Positions 54,166 to 60,504 of a DNA stretch of 64,000 nt are shown piece by piece. A program made the position numbers and the translations under genes. Position 1 is the stretch's first letter; each line of letters opens with the position of its first letter. The notes beneath the pieces are model-generated. The model worked only from the letters and a program-made list of their open reading frames with translations, did not search any database and had not been told where the DNA came from. The DNA is from Candidatus Kaiserbacteria bacterium RIFCSPHIGHO2_02_FULL_55_25 (GTDB lineage: Bacteria > Patescibacteriota > Minisyncoccia > Phycocordibacterales > UBA2100). Location of the stretch: positions 25,626 through 89,625 of the forward strand of contig MFLL01000001.1 in NCBI GenBank assembly GCA_001781335.1, read 5' to 3'.

Positions 54166-54990
54166 TCAAATTGAGCACAATCGTTGAGCTTCTTCGAGTA
54201 CCTGTGGAATCTTGCCCGGCGCGACGCCATACTCGCGCAGTGTGTGCGGGTCCCGCACGCTTTTACACAACACGACCTTGTTCTCCAAAAGCCGCCGTTT
54301 CTCTCCTTCGGAAAGTGTGGTCAAGGCCGTGAGCGGATGCACTTTGCCCTCCTCTATCATCTGCATCAGCCCGCGCGTGCGCGGATAATCCCAGCCGATG
54401 ACGGTGAGATTGGAACAGCGGGCGTAGCGGATGGCGTTGCGCGTCAGTACCGTATTGGTAACGAGCCAGCCCTCGTCCACCCGCGAAGAAGCAAGCGGCG
54501 CCTGTCGAAGGTCGTCGTAACGGGCTTTCACATAGAGCGCGTCTTTGATGTCGGTCTTTCCGCCCGGCTCGTTGTGGAATTTGGCCTCGATGCCAACGCG
54601 CCTGCCGTCTTTCTCGGCTAGTACATCCACCTCGTGTGGAGCGCAACGGCCCATGAGCATCAAGTCGGTACGGACGCGCCAGCCGTGCGCACGCAACACC
54701 TCGGCAAGGAATTGTTCAAACGGAAATCCGGACGGCCCGAGCGCAAAAACCGCGCGCTTGACCGAATACCGCGCCGCGATAGGCGTGGCCTCGTTTTTCT
54801 TAAGCAACGCAAACGCTCGGCGGTAAATATCCTCGGTCGTCATGAGCGGCCGAAGTTCCTTGATGACCTCCGAGAGAATGTGTGCGCGCATGGTCGATGA
54901 GGCGCCGGCATGCGAAAGCGAGCGCTCGAGCTTCACCGGGTCAAACGGCTCCTGTTCTCCATCAGCTTTTGTTATGAAAATGTGCGGCAT
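54166..54990 (-). CDS. ATP-cone domain fused to an Mrr-like PD-(D/E)xK restriction endonuclease domain.
   Basis: An N-terminal ATP-cone (ITKADGEQEPFDPVKLERSL) and a central HEVDVLAEKDGRRVGIEAKF motif (D...ExK). Confidence 0.68.
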   Translation of the reverse strand: MPHIFITKADGEQEPFDPVKLERSLSHAGASSTMRAHILSEVIKELRPLMTTEDIYRRAFALLKKNEATPIAARYSVKRAVFALGPSGFPFEQFLAEVLRAHGWRVRTDLMLMGRCAPHEVDVLAEKDGRRVGIEAKFHNEPGGKTDIKDALYVKARYDDLRQAPLASSRVDEGWLVTNTVLTRNAIRYARCSNLTVIGWDYPRTRGLMQMIEEGKVHPLTALTTLSEGEKRRLLENKVVLCKSVRDPHTLREYGVAPGKIPQVLEEAQRLCSI

Positions 54991-55459: not shown

Positions 55460-56590
55460 TCACTTCTCCGCAAAAGGCATCACTTTTTGTTTTTTGTCCT
55501 CTTTCGGCTTCGCCGCTGCGGGCACGGGAGCTGTGTTTTTTGCCAGTATGCCACCACCGAGACAGCGACCGCCGTCATACACAACGGCTGATTGCCCCGG
55601 AGAGATTACGTGCGGCTCGCCGAAGTCGACATACGCGCGCTTGCCTTCGCTGCGTAGCTTGATGGGAAGCGGCGTCTCCCGGTAGCGCATTTGTGCGGCA
55701 AGGCCGGTAAGGAACGACGGAGCGACTCCCGATATCCAATGCATGTCCAGCACAACGGTGCCCGCGCGCGCCGCGTCGGAACGGTTTGCCGACACTATCA
55801 CGATGTTGTTCTTGGTGTCGATACCGGTGACATAGTGCGGCGTCTTCGCCAACTGCTTCTTGGTGACGGTGAATCCGTGCCGCTGCCCGATAGTGTAGAG
55901 CGCGGCACCTTCGTGGACGCCGAGGATATGGCCCTTTTTGTCGGTCACGCGCCCCTCGGCAACAGTGATAAAGCGCTTCAGAAAATCGCGCATACTGACG
56001 TCGCCGACAAAACACAGGCCCTGACTGTCGGGCTTCTGCGCGACGGGAAGGGAGTGCGCTTTTGCATATGCGCGTACCTGTTTTTTTGTCATTGCGCCGA
56101 CGGGGAACGCGGAGCGCGAGAGGTCGCCCTGATTGAGTTGGTACAAAAAGTACGACTGGTCTTTGTCTTTGTCGACACCGCGCCACAGCTCGGGACCATG
56201 CTCGCCCTGTTTTATCTGCGCATAATGACCGGTCGCAACCACATCGGCACCCTCGGCGCGCGCCCATTTAGAGAACGCGCCGAACTTGATACTGCGATTG
56301 CACAGCACGTCGGGATTCGGTGTCTCGCCCGCGCTGTACGACGAAATCATTTTTGTGACGACCTCATTTTTGTACTCTTCGGACAAATCAATCTCTTTGA
56401 ACGGTATGCCGAGCGCTGCGGCAACGCGCATCGCATCGAGCCGGTCGCGCTGCCACGTGCACTCGATAAATTCCGGCTGCCAAATCTTTATGAAAACGCC
56501 CACAACCTTGTGCCCCTGTTCTTTGAGGAGCGCGGCACTCACCGCGCTATCCACTCCTCCCGAAAGCCCGACAAAAACCGTATGCGCCAT
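55460..56590 (-). CDS. mnmA: tRNA-specific 2-thiouridylase MnmA.
   Basis: PP-loop SGGVDSAV, catalytic cysteines, and the remaining MnmA signatures. Confidence 0.93.
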   Translation of the reverse strand: MAHTVFVGLSGGVDSAVSAALLKEQGHKVVGVFIKIWQPEFIECTWQRDRLDAMRVAAALGIPFKEIDLSEEYKNEVVTKMISSYSAGETPNPDVLCNRSIKFGAFSKWARAEGADVVATGHYAQIKQGEHGPELWRGVDKDKDQSYFLYQLNQGDLSRSAFPVGAMTKKQVRAYAKAHSLPVAQKPDSQGLCFVGDVSMRDFLKRFITVAEGRVTDKKGHILGVHEGAALYTIGQRHGFTVTKKQLAKTPHYVTGIDTKNNIVIVSANRSDAARAGTVVLDMHWISGVAPSFLTGLAAQMRYRETPLPIKLRSEGKRAYVDFGEPHVISPGQSAVVYDGGRCLGGGILAKNTAPVPAAAKPKEDKKQKVMPFAEK

Positions 56591-56644
56591 CGCACTACTA
56601 TATCAAAATTTACCAACGTACCGAGGTTTAATCTCATCATCTCG

Positions 56645-57415
56645 TGGCAAGGTAAGACCTTGCCATTTTTGTGTTATGCTTTTTGCCTATGGGCGATCGC
56701 ATCGTTTATTTCCAACCCGGAGAATGGTTCCACTGCTACAGTCGCGGTGTCGATAAAAGACGTGTATTTATATCAGCAAGCGATTATCAGCGTTTTCAGG
56801 CGCTGCTGTATGCATGTAACAATACTGATATGATTCACGTCAGTAATTACGGTCAAGGCTTTCGAAGTAAAAATCTTACTAATGTACTGAGTATTCCTCG
56901 GAGCGAATCGCTTGTTGACATCGGGGCATATAATCTGATGCCAAACCATTATCACCTTTTGTTGCGGGAACAGGTTGATGGTGGGGTGACTTCGTTCATG
57001 CGCAAAATCGGAACTGCGTACACCATGTACTTTAATATCAAGAACAAGCGCTCGGGTGCACTGTTCGAGGGTGCATTCAAAGCGAAACACGTTAAAACGG
57101 ATGCGTACTTCCGCAGAGTGTTCAATTACATTCAAGGCAATCATGCAGAACTTTCGGAGCCGCGATGGAAAGAAGGTGTCATCCAAAACGACCGGGCACT
57201 TATAGAGTCACTTCTCGCCTATCCATACTCGAGCCTTAAAGACTTCAACGGACCATCGAGACCAGAGCGCGCAATAGTTAACCGCAACTCGATACTCGAC
57301 ATCATTGACGAAATTCCGAACCCTAGAAAAATCCTTGAGGACGCTCGCATATTCGCTCGACTACACGAGGACGGCCTGTAACGCATCTACCTTATGGCAA
57401 GGTCTTACCTTGCCA
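56645..57415. mobile_element. RAYT/IS200-like element 3, flanked by inverted REP-like hairpins tggcaagg-taaga-ccttgcca (56645-56665) and tggcaagg-tctta-ccttgcca (57395-57415).
   Basis: The stems are identical and the loops are reverse complements, so the two hairpins are in inverted orientation. A third related hairpin tcatgagcaagg-aagac-ccttgctcatga lies at 57549-57577. Confidence 0.72.
56689..57381 (+). CDS. tnpA: HUH Y1 transposase-like protein, paralog 3.
   Basis: It has YNLMPNHYHLLL and VFNYIQGNHAEL. By alignment to the paralogs the start is the MGDRIVYFQ Met. Confidence 0.8.
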   Translation: MGDRIVYFQPGEWFHCYSRGVDKRRVFISASDYQRFQALLYACNNTDMIHVSNYGQGFRSKNLTNVLSIPRSESLVDIGAYNLMPNHYHLLLREQVDGGVTSFMRKIGTAYTMYFNIKNKRSGALFEGAFKAKHVKTDAYFRRVFNYIQGNHAELSEPRWKEGVIQNDRALIESLLAYPYSSLKDFNGPSRPERAIVNRNSILDIIDEIPNPRKILEDARIFARLHEDGL

Positions 57416-57487
57416 TTTACTGAGAAGCGCGGCTGACACCGCGCTGTCCACGCCACCGGAAAGTCCGACAAAAACCGTGTGTGCCAT
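57392..57487 (-). pseudogene. Duplicated mnmA 5' fragment. It encodes MAHTVFVGLSGGVDSAVSAALL, identical to authentic MnmA residues 1-22, then reads into the REP hairpin and stops.
   Basis: I compared it codon by codon with 56525-56590. There are about 10 nucleotide differences in 66 nt and all are synonymous. Confidence 0.72.
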
Positions 57488-57548
57488 TGCGTAAGGATAC
57501 TACAGTGGACAAAAGAATGAACCCCCGCGAGAGGCGAGGGTGTGTTGC

Positions 57549-57577
57549 TCATGAGCAAGGAAGACCCTTGCTCATGA
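57549..57577. repeat. Third REP-like hairpin of the element-3 family.
   Basis: The 12-bp stem tcatgagcaagg/ccttgctcatga has loop aagac, and it shares the gcaagg...ccttgc core with the element-3 terminal hairpins. Confidence 0.6.
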
Positions 57578-57588
57578 TTTTGCGGAAA

Positions 57589-57996
57589 TCAGTTGTACGC
57601 CGCCGGCCTCACCTGCCCGCCGTCTTCTACTGGCAAATGTCGCGGATTGTCGAATCTTTTCGCTTGACCCTCGCCCCATGTCCCACAATAACCGGCGGCG
57701 TCGCCACAGTAACCCGCGTGCGTGTACGGAAACTGTCCGTCACCGTCACAGCAAATGCCGTGACCAGGGAAGATCGGGCGTCGGCAACAAGCGCATAATG
57801 TGCTGAATGTATTGAGATATTCGCTCGCACACACGGCACATTTTGTCGACTCTTCGAAAGTGCACTGAGTGCCGAGCACCGCTATTTCGAATGGCGACTG
57901 CCCATTGTGCCCGCACTCGAAGCGTTTCGTGTTCGGAACAACCGGCACAGGTGCCGCGGTTCCTCTAAACAGACGGACCAATCTTTGCAAAGCCAT
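57589..57996 (-). CDS. Cysteine-rich hypothetical protein (135 aa, at least 14 Cys and several His).
   Basis: A strong SD (GGGGAGG) lies 7 nt upstream of the ATG at 57996. Cys and His residues are clustered (C.V.C, CACC, CC) and there is no signal peptide. Confidence 0.5.
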   Translation of the reverse strand: MALQRLVRLFRGTAAPVPVVPNTKRFECGHNGQSPFEIAVLGTQCTFEESTKCAVCASEYLNTFSTLCACCRRPIFPGHGICCDGDGQFPYTHAGYCGDAAGYCGTWGEGQAKRFDNPRHLPVEDGGQVRPAAYN

Positions 57997-58053
57997 GACT
58001 GCCTCCCCTTTGGCGCTGGCTACATGGTTACACGACCATGTCGGCAAAGCAAC

Positions 58054-59082
58054 TTAAAAGTATCTTGCCTTGTTGGCGAGCTGACATGAGTACGTCTTGC
58101 AGAAATGGGTCACGCCGCGCCGGTCGGCGAGAAAATACAGGTAATCGTTCTTCGTCGGAACGGCCGCCGCCAGTAGCGAATCGAGCGAGGGATTCCCTAT
58201 CGGCGTCGGCGGGAGACCTTTGTTGATGTATGTATTGTACGGCGAGGGCGTGACAAGGTCCTTCATGGTGATTTGGAATGTTCCTTTCCCGTGCGTGTAG
58301 GCGAAGGTTACGTCCACCTGCAAGGGCATTCCGCGTTTGATGCGATTCCACAGCACGCCGGAAATCATTTTGCGGTCGGCGGTGTTGTACGCTTCGCGCT
58401 CGAGAATGGATGCCATCACGACGATGTCGCTGACACTGCGGGTCGAGCTCGCGATTTGCGGCATGATAGTCTCGATTTTTGAATCGAAATTCTGGCGGAG
58501 TGTCTGTATCACCGTGCCTTCATTTGCATTGGGAAGGAAAAAATATGTGTCGGGGAAGAGGTATCCCTCCTGCGATTGCGCCTGCGCAAGAAAATTCTCC
58601 TTGTTGAAGCGCTCCAAGTGAACGCTGAAAATCGCCGCCATCTCTTTCACGGTCGCTCCCTCGGGGACGCGAATCCTCGCCGGCTCGAGCCCGAACGCGC
58701 CGACCGACATCGCGCGCGCGATGGTAAACAGGTCGCGCGGCTCCTTAAACAGGTAATCGCCCGCCTGCGCGGTACGCGTGGTGCCAAAAAGCGTCATCAA
58801 CACCCTGAATGCAAACGGCGAACGTATCACACCGTCGTCGTACAGGGTCTCTGCAATTTGGCTAAGTGTTTCCCCTTGCGGCACGGAGACAAGCTCGTTC
58901 ACGGGAAAATTGTCCGGCGCCTGTATCAGAGCGAGCCATGAGTACGTCGACAGCGCCCCGAGGATTACGAGAATGACAATAGTGCGGCGGTTGGCATGCA
59001 GACGCCAGCGCTCCGAAAGTTGTGCCTGCAGACCGTCAAGTACGGAAAAGAACTTCTCCAATGCGGCCTTGAGAGAATCCAT
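58054..59082 (-). CDS. mltG: Endolytic murein transglycosylase MltG (YceG-like).
   Basis: An N-terminal TM helix and a YceG domain. Confidence 0.82.
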   Translation of the reverse strand: MDSLKAALEKFFSVLDGLQAQLSERWRLHANRRTIVILVILGALSTYSWLALIQAPDNFPVNELVSVPQGETLSQIAETLYDDGVIRSPFAFRVLMTLFGTTRTAQAGDYLFKEPRDLFTIARAMSVGAFGLEPARIRVPEGATVKEMAAIFSVHLERFNKENFLAQAQSQEGYLFPDTYFFLPNANEGTVIQTLRQNFDSKIETIMPQIASSTRSVSDIVVMASILEREAYNTADRKMISGVLWNRIKRGMPLQVDVTFAYTHGKGTFQITMKDLVTPSPYNTYINKGLPPTPIGNPSLDSLLAAAVPTKNDYLYFLADRRGVTHFCKTYSCQLANKARYF

Positions 59083-59085
59083 GAA

Positions 59086-60504
59086 CTATTTCGGAAGGTT
59101 CGCAGGCGGTTCGGCCTTGGTCGCGGCCATCCGCTGGATACCCGGCACGGCGACAGCGCGGCTCGGCGGATGCCACAGAGAGGCAATCGTCTCGTTGGTG
59201 AGCACGTTGGTCGGCAAAATCCACGGCGAATTGAAGAACGAGCGACGGCGGAACGCATCATGCACGCGGTACCCCTGATTGATCCACCGGTAATCATGAA
59301 AGTCCTGCCACGGATAATCGAAATCGCAGTGCCATTTTTTTGGACGCAGGTGCGTACCGTATTGCGGGTTGCCGAACGGGCGCCATATCCAACGGAACCC
59401 CGTGAAGATGGGTCCGCGCAAGTCGCCTTCGACCCAGTAGATACCGCGCATGCCGACCTCAAAGGGGTATTTGCCGAGGTGGCGCTCCATTGCCTTCATC
59501 ATCTCGTTCTGTTTCCAAGACGGTCTCGGCGAGACGTGCTTGTCTTCTTCTTCGCCGTGCTCCGCAAGGACCTCTTTGAGCGTTTCCGCGGGAATGATGG
59601 CGGCCTCGGCGCGAAGCTTGTTGACTTCGTTTTCAACCATGTCCTTCCACAGATTGTCTTCGTCGGGCTTGCCAAACGGGTTGAGAATGTACCGCTTGCC
59701 CAATTTACGCAGAACGATTTGTATCCACAATTGTTCGTTGGGCTTGATACTGGACATGAATTCCAGCACGTTGGCGAGCGGGTCTATTTTGAATTCCTCT
59801 TTCGGGTCCTTGTCCAATTCAAAATCCACGTACGTGCGCGGTTGGTATGCGTTAATCCTGAAATCCGTTTGACCGATGCCCATATACGTCATAAGCGGCC
59901 ACTCGACGCCCCACACGTTGTGCTTTTCGGGGTCATACTGGAACTTCGTCGCATAATCTTCCACCTCGACAAGCTCTATTTCGGGATAGTGTGCATAAAG
60001 CATCCCCTCGATAATGTCTTTGTAATTCTTCCAGCACCAAATATAGAAATGTATCTCTCCGCCGAAACTCGCAATCTCAAAGGAGAAGAACGGACGAACC
60101 TGCCCCCTCCACGCACGGTGGAGAAAGGTCGTCTCGCCGGAGGAAAGATTGAGACTGGTGAGCGCGAGCTCCATGGCACGCGGCGAGCGAGCGACTTCGC
60201 GCGGGATTTTCATCTCGAGCAGTACCGGCTGACGGCCGGAAATATAGAGCGACTGAATGTAGGTTACCCAAGCCTTCCATGCTCCGATGATGAGCCCGAT
60301 GGGCACCCATATCGGAGCGGTGGCGACGAGCCAGTTGAACGTGAAGAGTGGGAGGTTGGGAATGAAGTTGCCTAATATGAGGTACAGGCCGAAAAAAACG
60401 ATGCCGAGCATGAACGCGCGCGATATACCCCACTCACCCCAGTAGCCGATGTCGAACAGTTCTTTAATCCAATGCGGGATTGGTCCGTGACTGCCATGCG
60501 CCAT
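59086..60504 (-). CDS. Large hypothetical membrane protein (472 aa, Trp-rich).
   Basis: Four or five N-terminal TM helices and a large soluble domain. No family recognised. Confidence 0.55.
   Translation of the reverse strand: MAHGSHGPIPHWIKELFDIGYWGEWGISRAFMLGIVFFGLYLILGNFIPNLPLFTFNWLVATAPIWVPIGLIIGAWKAWVTYIQSLYISGRQPVLLEMKIPREVARSPRAMELALTSLNLSSGETTFLHRAWRGQVRPFFSFEIASFGGEIHFYIWCWKNYKDIIEGMLYAHYPEIELVEVEDYATKFQYDPEKHNVWGVEWPLMTYMGIGQTDFRINAYQPRTYVDFELDKDPKEEFKIDPLANVLEFMSSIKPNEQLWIQIVLRKLGKRYILNPFGKPDEDNLWKDMVENEVNKLRAEAAIIPAETLKEVLAEHGEEEDKHVSPRPSWKQNEMMKAMERHLGKYPFEVGMRGIYWVEGDLRGPIFTGFRWIWRPFGNPQYGTHLRPKKWHCDFDYPWQDFHDYRWINQGYRVHDAFRRRSFFNSPWILPTNVLTNETIASLWHPPSRAVAVPGIQRMAATKAEPPANLPK

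Follow-up and report, generated by a model that had tools for sequence, protein, structure and literature searches.

A RAYT-like transposase cassette beside a probable relic of a foreign mnmA allele marks inter-species DNA exchange in Candidatus Kaiserbacteria

Among the described systems closest to the locus reported here, TnpA-REP of Escherichia coli, a REP-associated tyrosine transposase (RAYT; REP, repetitive extragenic palindrome), cleaves single-stranded DNA (ssDNA) beside a hairpin under the guidance of a 5′ GTAG; it stays covalently bound to the 5′ end, and any 3′-OH can in principle resolve this intermediate (PMC3479197). A high genome-wide frequency of the flanking 16-mers is the core feature of RAYTs (PMC5581495). 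In homology-facilitated illegitimate recombination, homology provides the anchor on one side and an illegitimate joint is made on the other (PMC3240628). Here we analyzed a 64-kb stretch of DNA (referred to as the window, whose coordinates are used throughout) from a groundwater-derived Candidatus Kaiserbacteria (Patescibacteria), in which a gene for a RAYT-like HUH/Y1 transposase lies between yceG and mnmA, the latter encoding tRNA 2-thiouridine(34) synthase. This gene is bracketed by two palindromes, H1 on the left and H2 on the right, and H2 is followed by a short second copy of the mnmA start (copy B), the start of mnmA itself being termed copy A. We conclude that the locus is a scar of inter-species DNA exchange, not a new kind of system, and that copy B is the non-functional relic of an mnmA allele that once worked in another species.

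The two mnmA starts form a 70-nt direct repeat (56524-56593 vs 57421-57490) with 83% identity, and both copies encode MAHTVFVGLSGGVDSAVSAALL on the minus strand (22 codons). An earlier note on this DNA had described a second mnmA start of 22 codons, with about 10 nucleotides changed and every change synonymous; alignment of the copies bears this out, since 11 of 66 nt in nine codons differ and no change is nonsynonymous, the differences including a switch of codon family at Ser18 (AGT vs TCA in copies A and B). Such a pattern is not expected by chance, given that eight random substitutions left the peptide unchanged with p = 2.5e-5 and 11 substitutions never did so in 200,000 trials. The synonymous divergence (dS) of the two copies is 0.78, which matches the dS of 0.48-0.78 found for mnmA between species.

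Inspection of the closest mnmA relatives, a small species group with 88-90% amino acid identity (the next relatives follow at 70%), provided the empty site that the earlier note had suggested seeking. In a member of this group from another aquifer, L107, yceG is directly followed by mnmA with neither a transposase gene nor a small open reading frame (ORF) between them, and the junction consists of the yceG stop codon TAA, AC, TTGATATAGTAGTGCG and the mnmA ATG, the spacer being 18 nt. L107 is as distant from the window as are other group members (dS 0.61 for mnmA and 0.66 for yceG). The 16 nt ahead of copy A (56591-56606) are identical to the L107 spacer. This indicates that copy A and the mnmA gene body are native, that 56607-58053 is inserted DNA, and that copy B lies inside the insert; the sequence upstream of copy B, which holds a terminator-like hairpin, a third palindrome (H3) and a Cys-rich ORF, is not the native spacer. 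The ancestral state is therefore yceG and mnmA adjacent with the 18-nt spacer between them, and an equivalence of the two copies, as the earlier note had implied, does not hold. From mnmA towards yceG, the insert comprises 38 nt, H1, the transposase gene, H2, copy B, the terminator-like hairpin, H3 and the small lineage-specific ORF, and the G+C content is 41-49% over 56600-57400 compared with 54-63% in the flanks.

The same data bear on a gene-restoring insertion, in which an element composed of copy A, a promoter, H1, the transposase gene and H2 would have entered mnmA after codon 22 and displaced a native copy B. Such an event has a precedent in prophage e14 at the 3′ end of icd (PMC6379469), both copies break off sharply at codon 22/23, and the sequence upstream of copy B resembles a chromosomal context, with a -10-like box, a terminator-like hairpin and, further up, a gene. 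However, it is copy A whose upstream sequence matches the L107 spacer, and the upstream sequence of copy B is absent from the empty site, which largely refutes this explanation; moreover, no integrase is present. By searching a one-genome-per-species collection, at least 521 loci encoding a relative of the transposase were found among the 600 pattern matches listed (tblastn-confirmed), and the best 80 of them, 72 with both flanks, were taken for the surveys of family loci. Hairpins aside, a duplicated gene end beside the cassette was found at none of these 80 loci (0/72 of those with both flanks), and none of the 80 lies near mnmA or yceG. A gene-restoring insertion is thus very unlikely, and the duplication is a one-off of this species group and not a property of the family.

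Copy B was then followed into other lineages, where it is decaying. The junction TTTAC[T/C]GAG together with a B-type copy is present in two further lineages, and the B-type Ser18 codon is TCN, compared with AGY in most working alleles. In L021/L025 the copy carries S10W and G12Y and reads GLWGYVDS, so that the catalytic SGGxDS motif is destroyed, and in L009 it carries D14G, A16V and A20E and has lost its start (ATG region) to a deletion; in the S2 lineage no recognisable copy B was found at the same place. The five working alleles (W, the window's lineage, S2, S3, L018 and L107) all encode the same 22 residues at a distance of 8-16 of 66 nt from one another, and copy B differs by 9-11 nt from every one of them. 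By parsimony, only about two changes in copy B (GGC>GGT and TCC>TCA) fall on the window branch, and its intact frame therefore needs no selection. The all-synonymous difference between the copies is accounted for by a 22-residue PP-loop peptide that is invariant in the species group, plus the roughly two substitutions acquired by copy B since its capture. Thus, the proposal that both copies had been working genes in different lineages stands, with copy B at capture being another species-level working allele and now a non-functional relic. For annotation, this means that the 31-codon ORF which contains copy B (57392-57487, minus strand) and ends inside H2 should be treated as a fragment of a pseudogene and not as another start of mnmA.

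We also considered that copy B might be retained for a function, either as an outward antisense promoter over the transposase gene or as a 31-residue peptide. In the window its ATG, its 22 codons and an upstream -10-like TAGTAT (the start plus its upstream sequence contains GTGTGTGCCATTGCGTAAGGATACTACAG) are intact, and transcription through H2 would run antisense to the transposase gene. Yet the lesions in L021/L025 and L009, the want of a recognisable copy in S2, the small number of substitutions on the window branch and a consensus promoter scan that finds nothing there all speak against such a role, which we regard as highly improbable.

The extent of the duplication was evaluated by comparing the two regions that reach from the ATG of each copy to the hairpin upstream of it. 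In global and local alignment they show no significant similarity, as 1936 of 2000 shuffles score at least as high as the real pair, and the demonstrable duplication is therefore limited to the 70 nt. This bears on a local origin, in which insertion of the cassette or an unequal exchange between sister strands gave a long target duplication or a tandem duplication of the mnmA start, followed by loss of a second transposase gene, leaving H3 behind, and by later replacement of one flank through homologous recombination with another species. The spacing would suit it, with H3 63 nt upstream of copy B and H1 54 nt upstream of copy A, both belonging to the same hairpin family, and flanks replaced by crossing over within the transposase gene are indeed seen (see below). 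Nevertheless, besides the dissimilarity of the regions between ATG and hairpin, a target duplication should have left yceG and the spacer with the copy far from the gene body, whereas the opposite was found, and more steps are needed than for capture of a foreign fragment. A local duplication is accordingly considered unlikely.

An assembly artefact, with the mnmA starts of two strains collapsed or mis-joined around a shared transposase gene, would be conceivable in samples that hold related species with 92-97% identical transposase genes, and what looks like an obvious mis-join does occur in L019. However, contigs with the full arrangement at 100% identity were obtained from no fewer than five samples and three pipelines of assembly. 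Over a stretch of 1301 nt, L010 (a 192-kb scaffold), L011, L013 and L015 agree with the window at 100% and L014 at 99.9%, so that five independent assemblies are identical here and a sixth nearly so. Further, the same B junction is found in the two further lineages with substitutions of their own. The collapsed-repeat error that the earlier note had raised against itself is almost certainly not the explanation. In L019 itself, positions 2-250 were inspected as a candidate second transposase copy and rejected, because this 250-nt fragment, 96% identical to the contig's own copy and abruptly joined to mgtC, is absent from the otherwise identical L020 and is probably a mis-join.

To quantify the divergence along the locus, dS was compared between the window lineage and S2, S3 and L018. 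For the transposase gene it amounts to 0.17-0.27, compared with 0.48-0.78 for mnmA and 0.57-0.64 for yceG in the same pairs, so that the transposase gene is 3-4 times closer between species than its flanking genes. Copy B and its first 39 upstream nt, with a difference of about 10% between the window and S3, have diverged to the degree of the cassette and less than the flanks. Such a dS deficit among sister species indicates horizontal exchange, in agreement with the earlier inference of recombination with a related organism. The left and right flanks of the cassette also occur on contigs in several pairings, namely W-W, S2-S2, S3-S3, W-S2 (L012, L016), S3-W (L023) and S2-W (L024), and the change from one species to the other falls within the transposase gene, in intervals of 88 nt and 63 nt. 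Whether or not these mosaics are real, the dS contrast shows that the cassette with the relic moved between species after their divergence, and the given pairing of A with B is a product of inter-species reshuffling. In an uncultivated bacterium of the candidate phyla radiation, where recombination is hard to observe, the locus preserves a clean and datable trace of DNA passing between sister species.

The palindromes define the cassette at the nucleotide level. The H1 core (56645-56665) is TGGCAAGGTAAGACCTTGCCA and the H2 core (57395-57415) is its exact reverse complement, the 22-nt arms being 100% complementary; each is by itself a 21-nt palindrome (TGGCAAGGTNNNACCTTGCCA) with a 9-bp stem, and their sole difference is the 3-nt loop, AAG vs CTT. 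Folded as ssDNA, H1 and H2 reach -9.6 and -10.3 kcal/mol (z -5.3 and -6.4), and TTT follows both on the plus strand. H3, located 135 nt past H2, folds with -13.3 kcal/mol (z -5.25), and related degenerate hairpins occupy its place in the right flanks of S2 and L009. Within the window, GCAAGG-N5-CCTTGC is matched at three places, each of them part of this locus, where 0.01 matches would be expected, and neither the flanking 16-mers nor the palindrome were found elsewhere in the window. Hence, of the earlier description of a gene bracketed by inverted REP-like hairpins, with a third related hairpin 135 bp further on, the hairpins themselves are all confirmed, but a dispersed REP family is not, and the term inverted, though H1 and H2 are exact reverse complements, is uninformative, because their only asymmetry is the loop. 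This loop flips independently among the window, L018, L005, L009 and L001 with the flanks unchanged; loop orientation is not a reliable marker of repeat orientation, and its flipping may reflect processing of a hairpin or cruciform.

That the cassette is a unit follows from its occurrence in different contexts, which are yceG-mnmA in the window, a 63-aa ORF and yceG in L005, and yebC-ruvC in L001. Homology across the contexts starts exactly at H1 and stops at H2 plus TTTAC (L005 and L001; L009 starts likewise), and the cassette is therefore bounded by these sites. The right flank CCATTTAC is common to the window, L005 and the S3 lineage, and the stem has undergone a compensatory change, from GGCAAGG/CCTTGCC to GGTCAAGG/CCTTGACC or the reverse.

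Beyond this species group, a palindromic 14-mer or longer was found on both flanks in 60 of the 72 family loci across Patescibacteria (among the best 80), with stems that vary by genome around a common AAGG...CCTT or TAGG...CCTA core. A further copy of the palindrome more than 300 nt away was found in only four of these 60 relatives (277 kb surveyed). The transposase presumably binds the palindrome as a hairpin. In the sequence surveyed, which leaves room for a small population, no REP population is visible around the hairpin-bounded cassette that encodes this RAYT-like enzyme, and such a large Patescibacteria-wide family bears on the role of 'domesticated' HUH transposases.

A separate observation concerns a small hairpin within the mnmA starts themselves. 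The codons for S-A-V-S-A-A-L (56527-56549 and 57426-57446) can pair into a G+C-rich stem of 7 bp, AGCGCGG-N6-CCGCGCT, which ends 4 nt short of the breakpoint and has a z of -4.1 (copy A) or -2.5 (copy B). This hairpin may arise by chance from the Ala and Ser codons, or it may serve as a site of pausing or as a pseudo-substrate. Its candidacy as an IS608-style left end was rejected, since it is unlike H1 and H2 and is lost in the S3 allele.

The enzyme of the cassette was characterized by sequence and structure comparison. As previously placed, the HUH gene is contained in an ORF spanning 56671..57381 on the plus strand, which contains YNLMPNHYHLLL; translation probably begins at the ATG at 56689 and yields a protein of 230 aa. 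The protein matches Pfam Y1_Tnp (PF01797) with 29.8 bits against a cut-off of 23 and carries the HUH motif PNHYHLLL and a conserved Tyr within an NYIxxN (NYIHxN) motif; H87, H89, Y147 and N151 are invariant in a 24-sequence alignment. Its AlphaFold2 model (pLDDT 90.7) is best matched in the Protein Data Bank (PDB) by 4ER8, the E. coli RAYT (E 8.5e-6, TM 0.71, rmsd 3.3), and clearly more poorly by the IS608 and ISDra2 TnpA structures (TM 0.53-0.63, rmsd 7-16). The equivalog-level NCBIfam RAYT model NF047646 was not passed (28 bits against a cut-off of 80), and a profile search of PDB sequences matched ISDra2 TnpA weakly (E 0.0075) without finding 4ER8. Relatives of about 230 aa number more than 1000, nearly all of them from Patescibacteria, under the source names 'transposase' or 'RayT' (JGI names some of them RayT); for a 147-aa NCBI member of the transposase cluster, the look-up yielded no contig. 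One copy of the gene is present within the window. Between species, the ratio of nonsynonymous (dN) to synonymous divergence of the gene is about 0.08-0.1. Two groups whose dS is saturated both retain the gene between yceG and mnmA, the cassette of L001 being elsewhere.

As a side observation, in a comparison of two Kaiserbacteria groups (window 56689-57381 vs L005 3662-4351), the dN of the transposase is 0.18, that of YceG 0.27 and that of MnmA 0.38. The lower value for the transposase fits a domesticated function or a later transfer.

Taking the observed anatomy, the empty site, the native copy A, the decay of copy B elsewhere and the unequal dS together, we consider it likely that copy B is a fragment of another lineage's working mnmA allele, which was joined to the cassette end and spread between species by recombination. 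About 1.45 kb, with the hairpin-bounded transposase cassette as its core, has been inserted into the yceG-mnmA spacer. As to the maker of the joint and the order of events, we infer the following course. A single illegitimate joint would connect the cassette end to an mnmA 5′ end, at position +66/67, from which the upstream context had not yet been lost. By analogy with TnpA-REP, this joint would most plausibly be enzyme-made, the enzyme cutting ssDNA beside the hairpin and a free 3′-OH resolving the covalent intermediate. The mnmA 5′ fragment would have kept its own upstream gene and terminator, with the other side anchored by yceG homology, as in homology-facilitated illegitimate recombination (PMC3240628). 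Alternatively, the cassette may have hopped into an mnmA allele, and the resulting half-allele may have been rescued into a genome with an intact mnmA. The product would have been fixed by homologous recombination in a genome with an intact mnmA; later, cassette and relic would have passed among co-resident sister species by homologous recombination, with the transposase gene as the crossover region. Both the enzyme-joint and the cassette-hop orders are compatible with the data.

Copy B begins within a base or two of the site at which homology of the cassette stops in all contexts (CCATTTAC). A joint at the exact cassette end would point to the HUH enzyme, since a random illegitimate joint would not be expected there. 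The bottom strand reads ...CTT CTC A|GTAAA-hairpin, with a free mnmA 3′ end joined to the GTAAA-hairpin. This 5′ foot of H2 is (G)GTAAA in the window, S3 and L005, and TCTAAA in S2, that of H1 being CAAAAA; in E. coli a conserved guide tetranucleotide, GTAG, stands at the 5′ foot of the hairpin. If the joint was enzyme-made, it would represent a rare in vivo trace of a strand transfer that, for E. coli TnpA-REP, has been observed in vitro only.

Several points weigh against the capture of a foreign allele fragment as set out above. A B-type allele as a working gene with its upstream context was seen on no contig examined, no dedicated search having been made, and the donor arrangement is therefore hypothetical. 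The dinucleotide at the joint is T|T or C|G (native mnmA), not the CT of the E. coli RAYT, and cleavage by the present enzyme beside its hairpin is presumed by analogy. The model accounts neither for the 38-nt stretch that separates H1 from the native spacer nor for the left side of L009, which carries a reversed S2 right flank. Finally, the mosaic contigs come from metagenomes that hold several of these species, and some could be assembler chimeras; given that the switch intervals of 63-88 nt are shorter than the final assembler k of 141 and that the W-S2 mosaic recurs in two samples, we think that most of them are probably real recombinants.

A bolder extension is that this cassette of Patescibacteria is an active ssDNA strand-transferase, which ligates free foreign or nascent 3′ ends to its hairpin flank, with copy B as its footprint and the variable slot beside it (see below) built likewise. 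We consider this unlikely, though conceivable. If true, the cassette would be a miniature gene-capture platform and a portable homology patch that drives inter-species gene flow in tiny genomes.

Two features of the insert and its variants deserve separate mention. The 38-nt stretch at 56607-56644 is foreign to both the empty site and the cassette as found in other contexts, and starts with AATTTACC, resembling the right-end flank CCATTTACC. In L009 (1086 nt), positions 1-131, left of H1, are the exact reverse complement of the S2 sequence following H2 (L012 2011-2140), and positions 903-1086, right of H2, include a decayed copy B; this layout suggests an inversion or other rearrangement at the palindromes.

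The features of the locus are collected in Table 1.

Table 1. Coordinates of the features at the yceG-mnmA locus of the window.
Feature	Coordinates	Strand	Remarks
mnmA, tRNA 2-thiouridine(34) synthase, working gene	55460..56590	-	376 aa; NCBIfam NF001138 399.5 bits (cut-off 284)
Copy A, mnmA codons 1-22 plus 3 nt upstream, native	56524..56593	-	Reference of direct repeat D1; contiguous with gene body and native spacer
Remnant of native yceG-mnmA spacer	56591..56606	-	Reads TTGATATAGTAGTGCG on the - strand; 16/16 nt as in L107 spacer
Inserted DNA, ~1.45 kb	56607..58053	.	Absent from sister species L107
H1, left terminal palindrome	56645..56668	+	TGGCAAGGT-AAG-ACCTTGCCA plus TTT
RAYT-like HUH/Y1 single-strand DNA transposase gene	56689..57381	+	230 aa; Pfam Y1_Tnp
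H2, right terminal palindrome, loop CTT, plus conserved flank TTTAC	57395..57420	+	On the - strand: GTAAA, then hairpin
Copy B, mnmA codons 1-22 plus 1 nt of codon 23 plus 3 nt upstream	57421..57490	-	Relic of another lineage's mnmA, fused to H2
Terminator-like hairpin with T-rich tail	57521..57541	-	Downstream of small ORF, upstream of copy B
H3, degenerate member of the palindrome family	57551..57577	.	CATGAGCAAGG-AAGAC-CCTTGCTCATG
Cys-rich small ORF, lineage-specific cargo of insert	57589..58047	-	152 aa; 135 aa from ATG 57996
yceG (mltG-type)	58054..59082	-	Pfam YceG 244 bits; directly precedes mnmA in empty site L107

In addition, MnmA contains the Pfam domain tRNA_Me_trans and its two further domains, and an identical MnmA protein is encoded on at least 24 contigs. 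The spacer remnant holds an extended -10-like TGATATAGT. For the Cys-rich ORF, family searches found no family and the hint of a zinc ribbon is weak; Rfam and PHROGs searches of the region gave no match.

The slot beside the cassette is occupied by an unrelated small ORF in each lineage, with no Pfam family in any of them: the Cys-rich ORF (152 aa, 57589-58047, minus strand) in the window, a 151-aa ORF in S2 (L026 1156-1611, minus strand), a 152-aa ORF in S3 (L025 1193-1651, minus strand), and ORFs of 191 and 63 aa in L005 (2728-3510, minus strand). Behind the ORF, both the window and S2 carry a degenerate hairpin of the family and a terminator-like stem. The slot looks like a variable cargo slot. 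Outside the locus, a 274-aa protein with an N-terminal ATP-cone and an Mrr-type restriction-endonuclease domain is encoded at 54166-54990 (minus strand) with synteny kept in all relatives, and a 472-aa ORF (59086-60504, minus strand), for which precomputed listings give no Pfam family, adjoins yceG in every relative.

Compared with the RAYT/TnpA-REP system (E. coli YafM, 4ER8), the cassette shares the HUH motif with a single catalytic Tyr, and this system provides the best fold match. Also shared are the single gene copy at the locus with hairpin-forming palindromes on both sides, a layout seen in the 60 of 72 family loci mentioned above, purifying selection like that of a housekeeping gene (dN/dS about 0.1), and a hairpin that co-varies with the protein across the phylum. 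In contrast, the protein here is 230 aa long, about 80 residues of which make up an additional helical region at the C terminus, and fails the NCBIfam RAYT cut-off; the palindromes, with their perfect 9-bp stems, keep to the cassette, the surveyed 64 kb and 277 kb showing no dispersed REP or REPIN population; and the cassette has changed its genomic context and been exchanged between species.

With the IS200/IS605 elements (IS608 and ISDra2 TnpA), it has in common the Y1 HUH fold, a TTT flank on one strand at both hairpins, varied contexts and no obvious target duplication; its three contexts share no common target sequence. It differs from them in the weaker structural match, in having no second copy in the 64 kb and no tnpB, in a left hairpin that sits at the very edge and is not subterminal with a guide sequence, in its perfect stems, and in a gene whose conservation between distant relatives exceeds that of the housekeeping genes beside it.

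A short diverged gene-end copy beyond inserted DNA recalls E. coli icd, whose copies differ mostly at silent sites. The likeness is to e14 and phage 21, which leave a pseudo-icd′ (PMC6379469). There, the element-borne copy is the working end and an integrase recombines att sites inside the duplicated segment. At the present locus, by contrast, the native copy is the one that works, the inserted DNA contains the fragment, which is decaying, and the insert encodes no integrase, the HUH/Y1 protein being its sole enzyme. Homology-facilitated illegitimate recombination and the gene relics of sequential displacement, for example in the Vibrio cholerae type VI secretion system (T6SS) effector/immunity arrays (PMC3240628, PMC5361080), share with this locus the homology-anchored foreign DNA, the illegitimate joint and the truncated remnants of a displaced or imported gene. 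In contrast to them, the joint here lies at the exact end of the hairpin cassette, which, judged from its position in the sequence, would point to the HUH enzyme over random microhomology.

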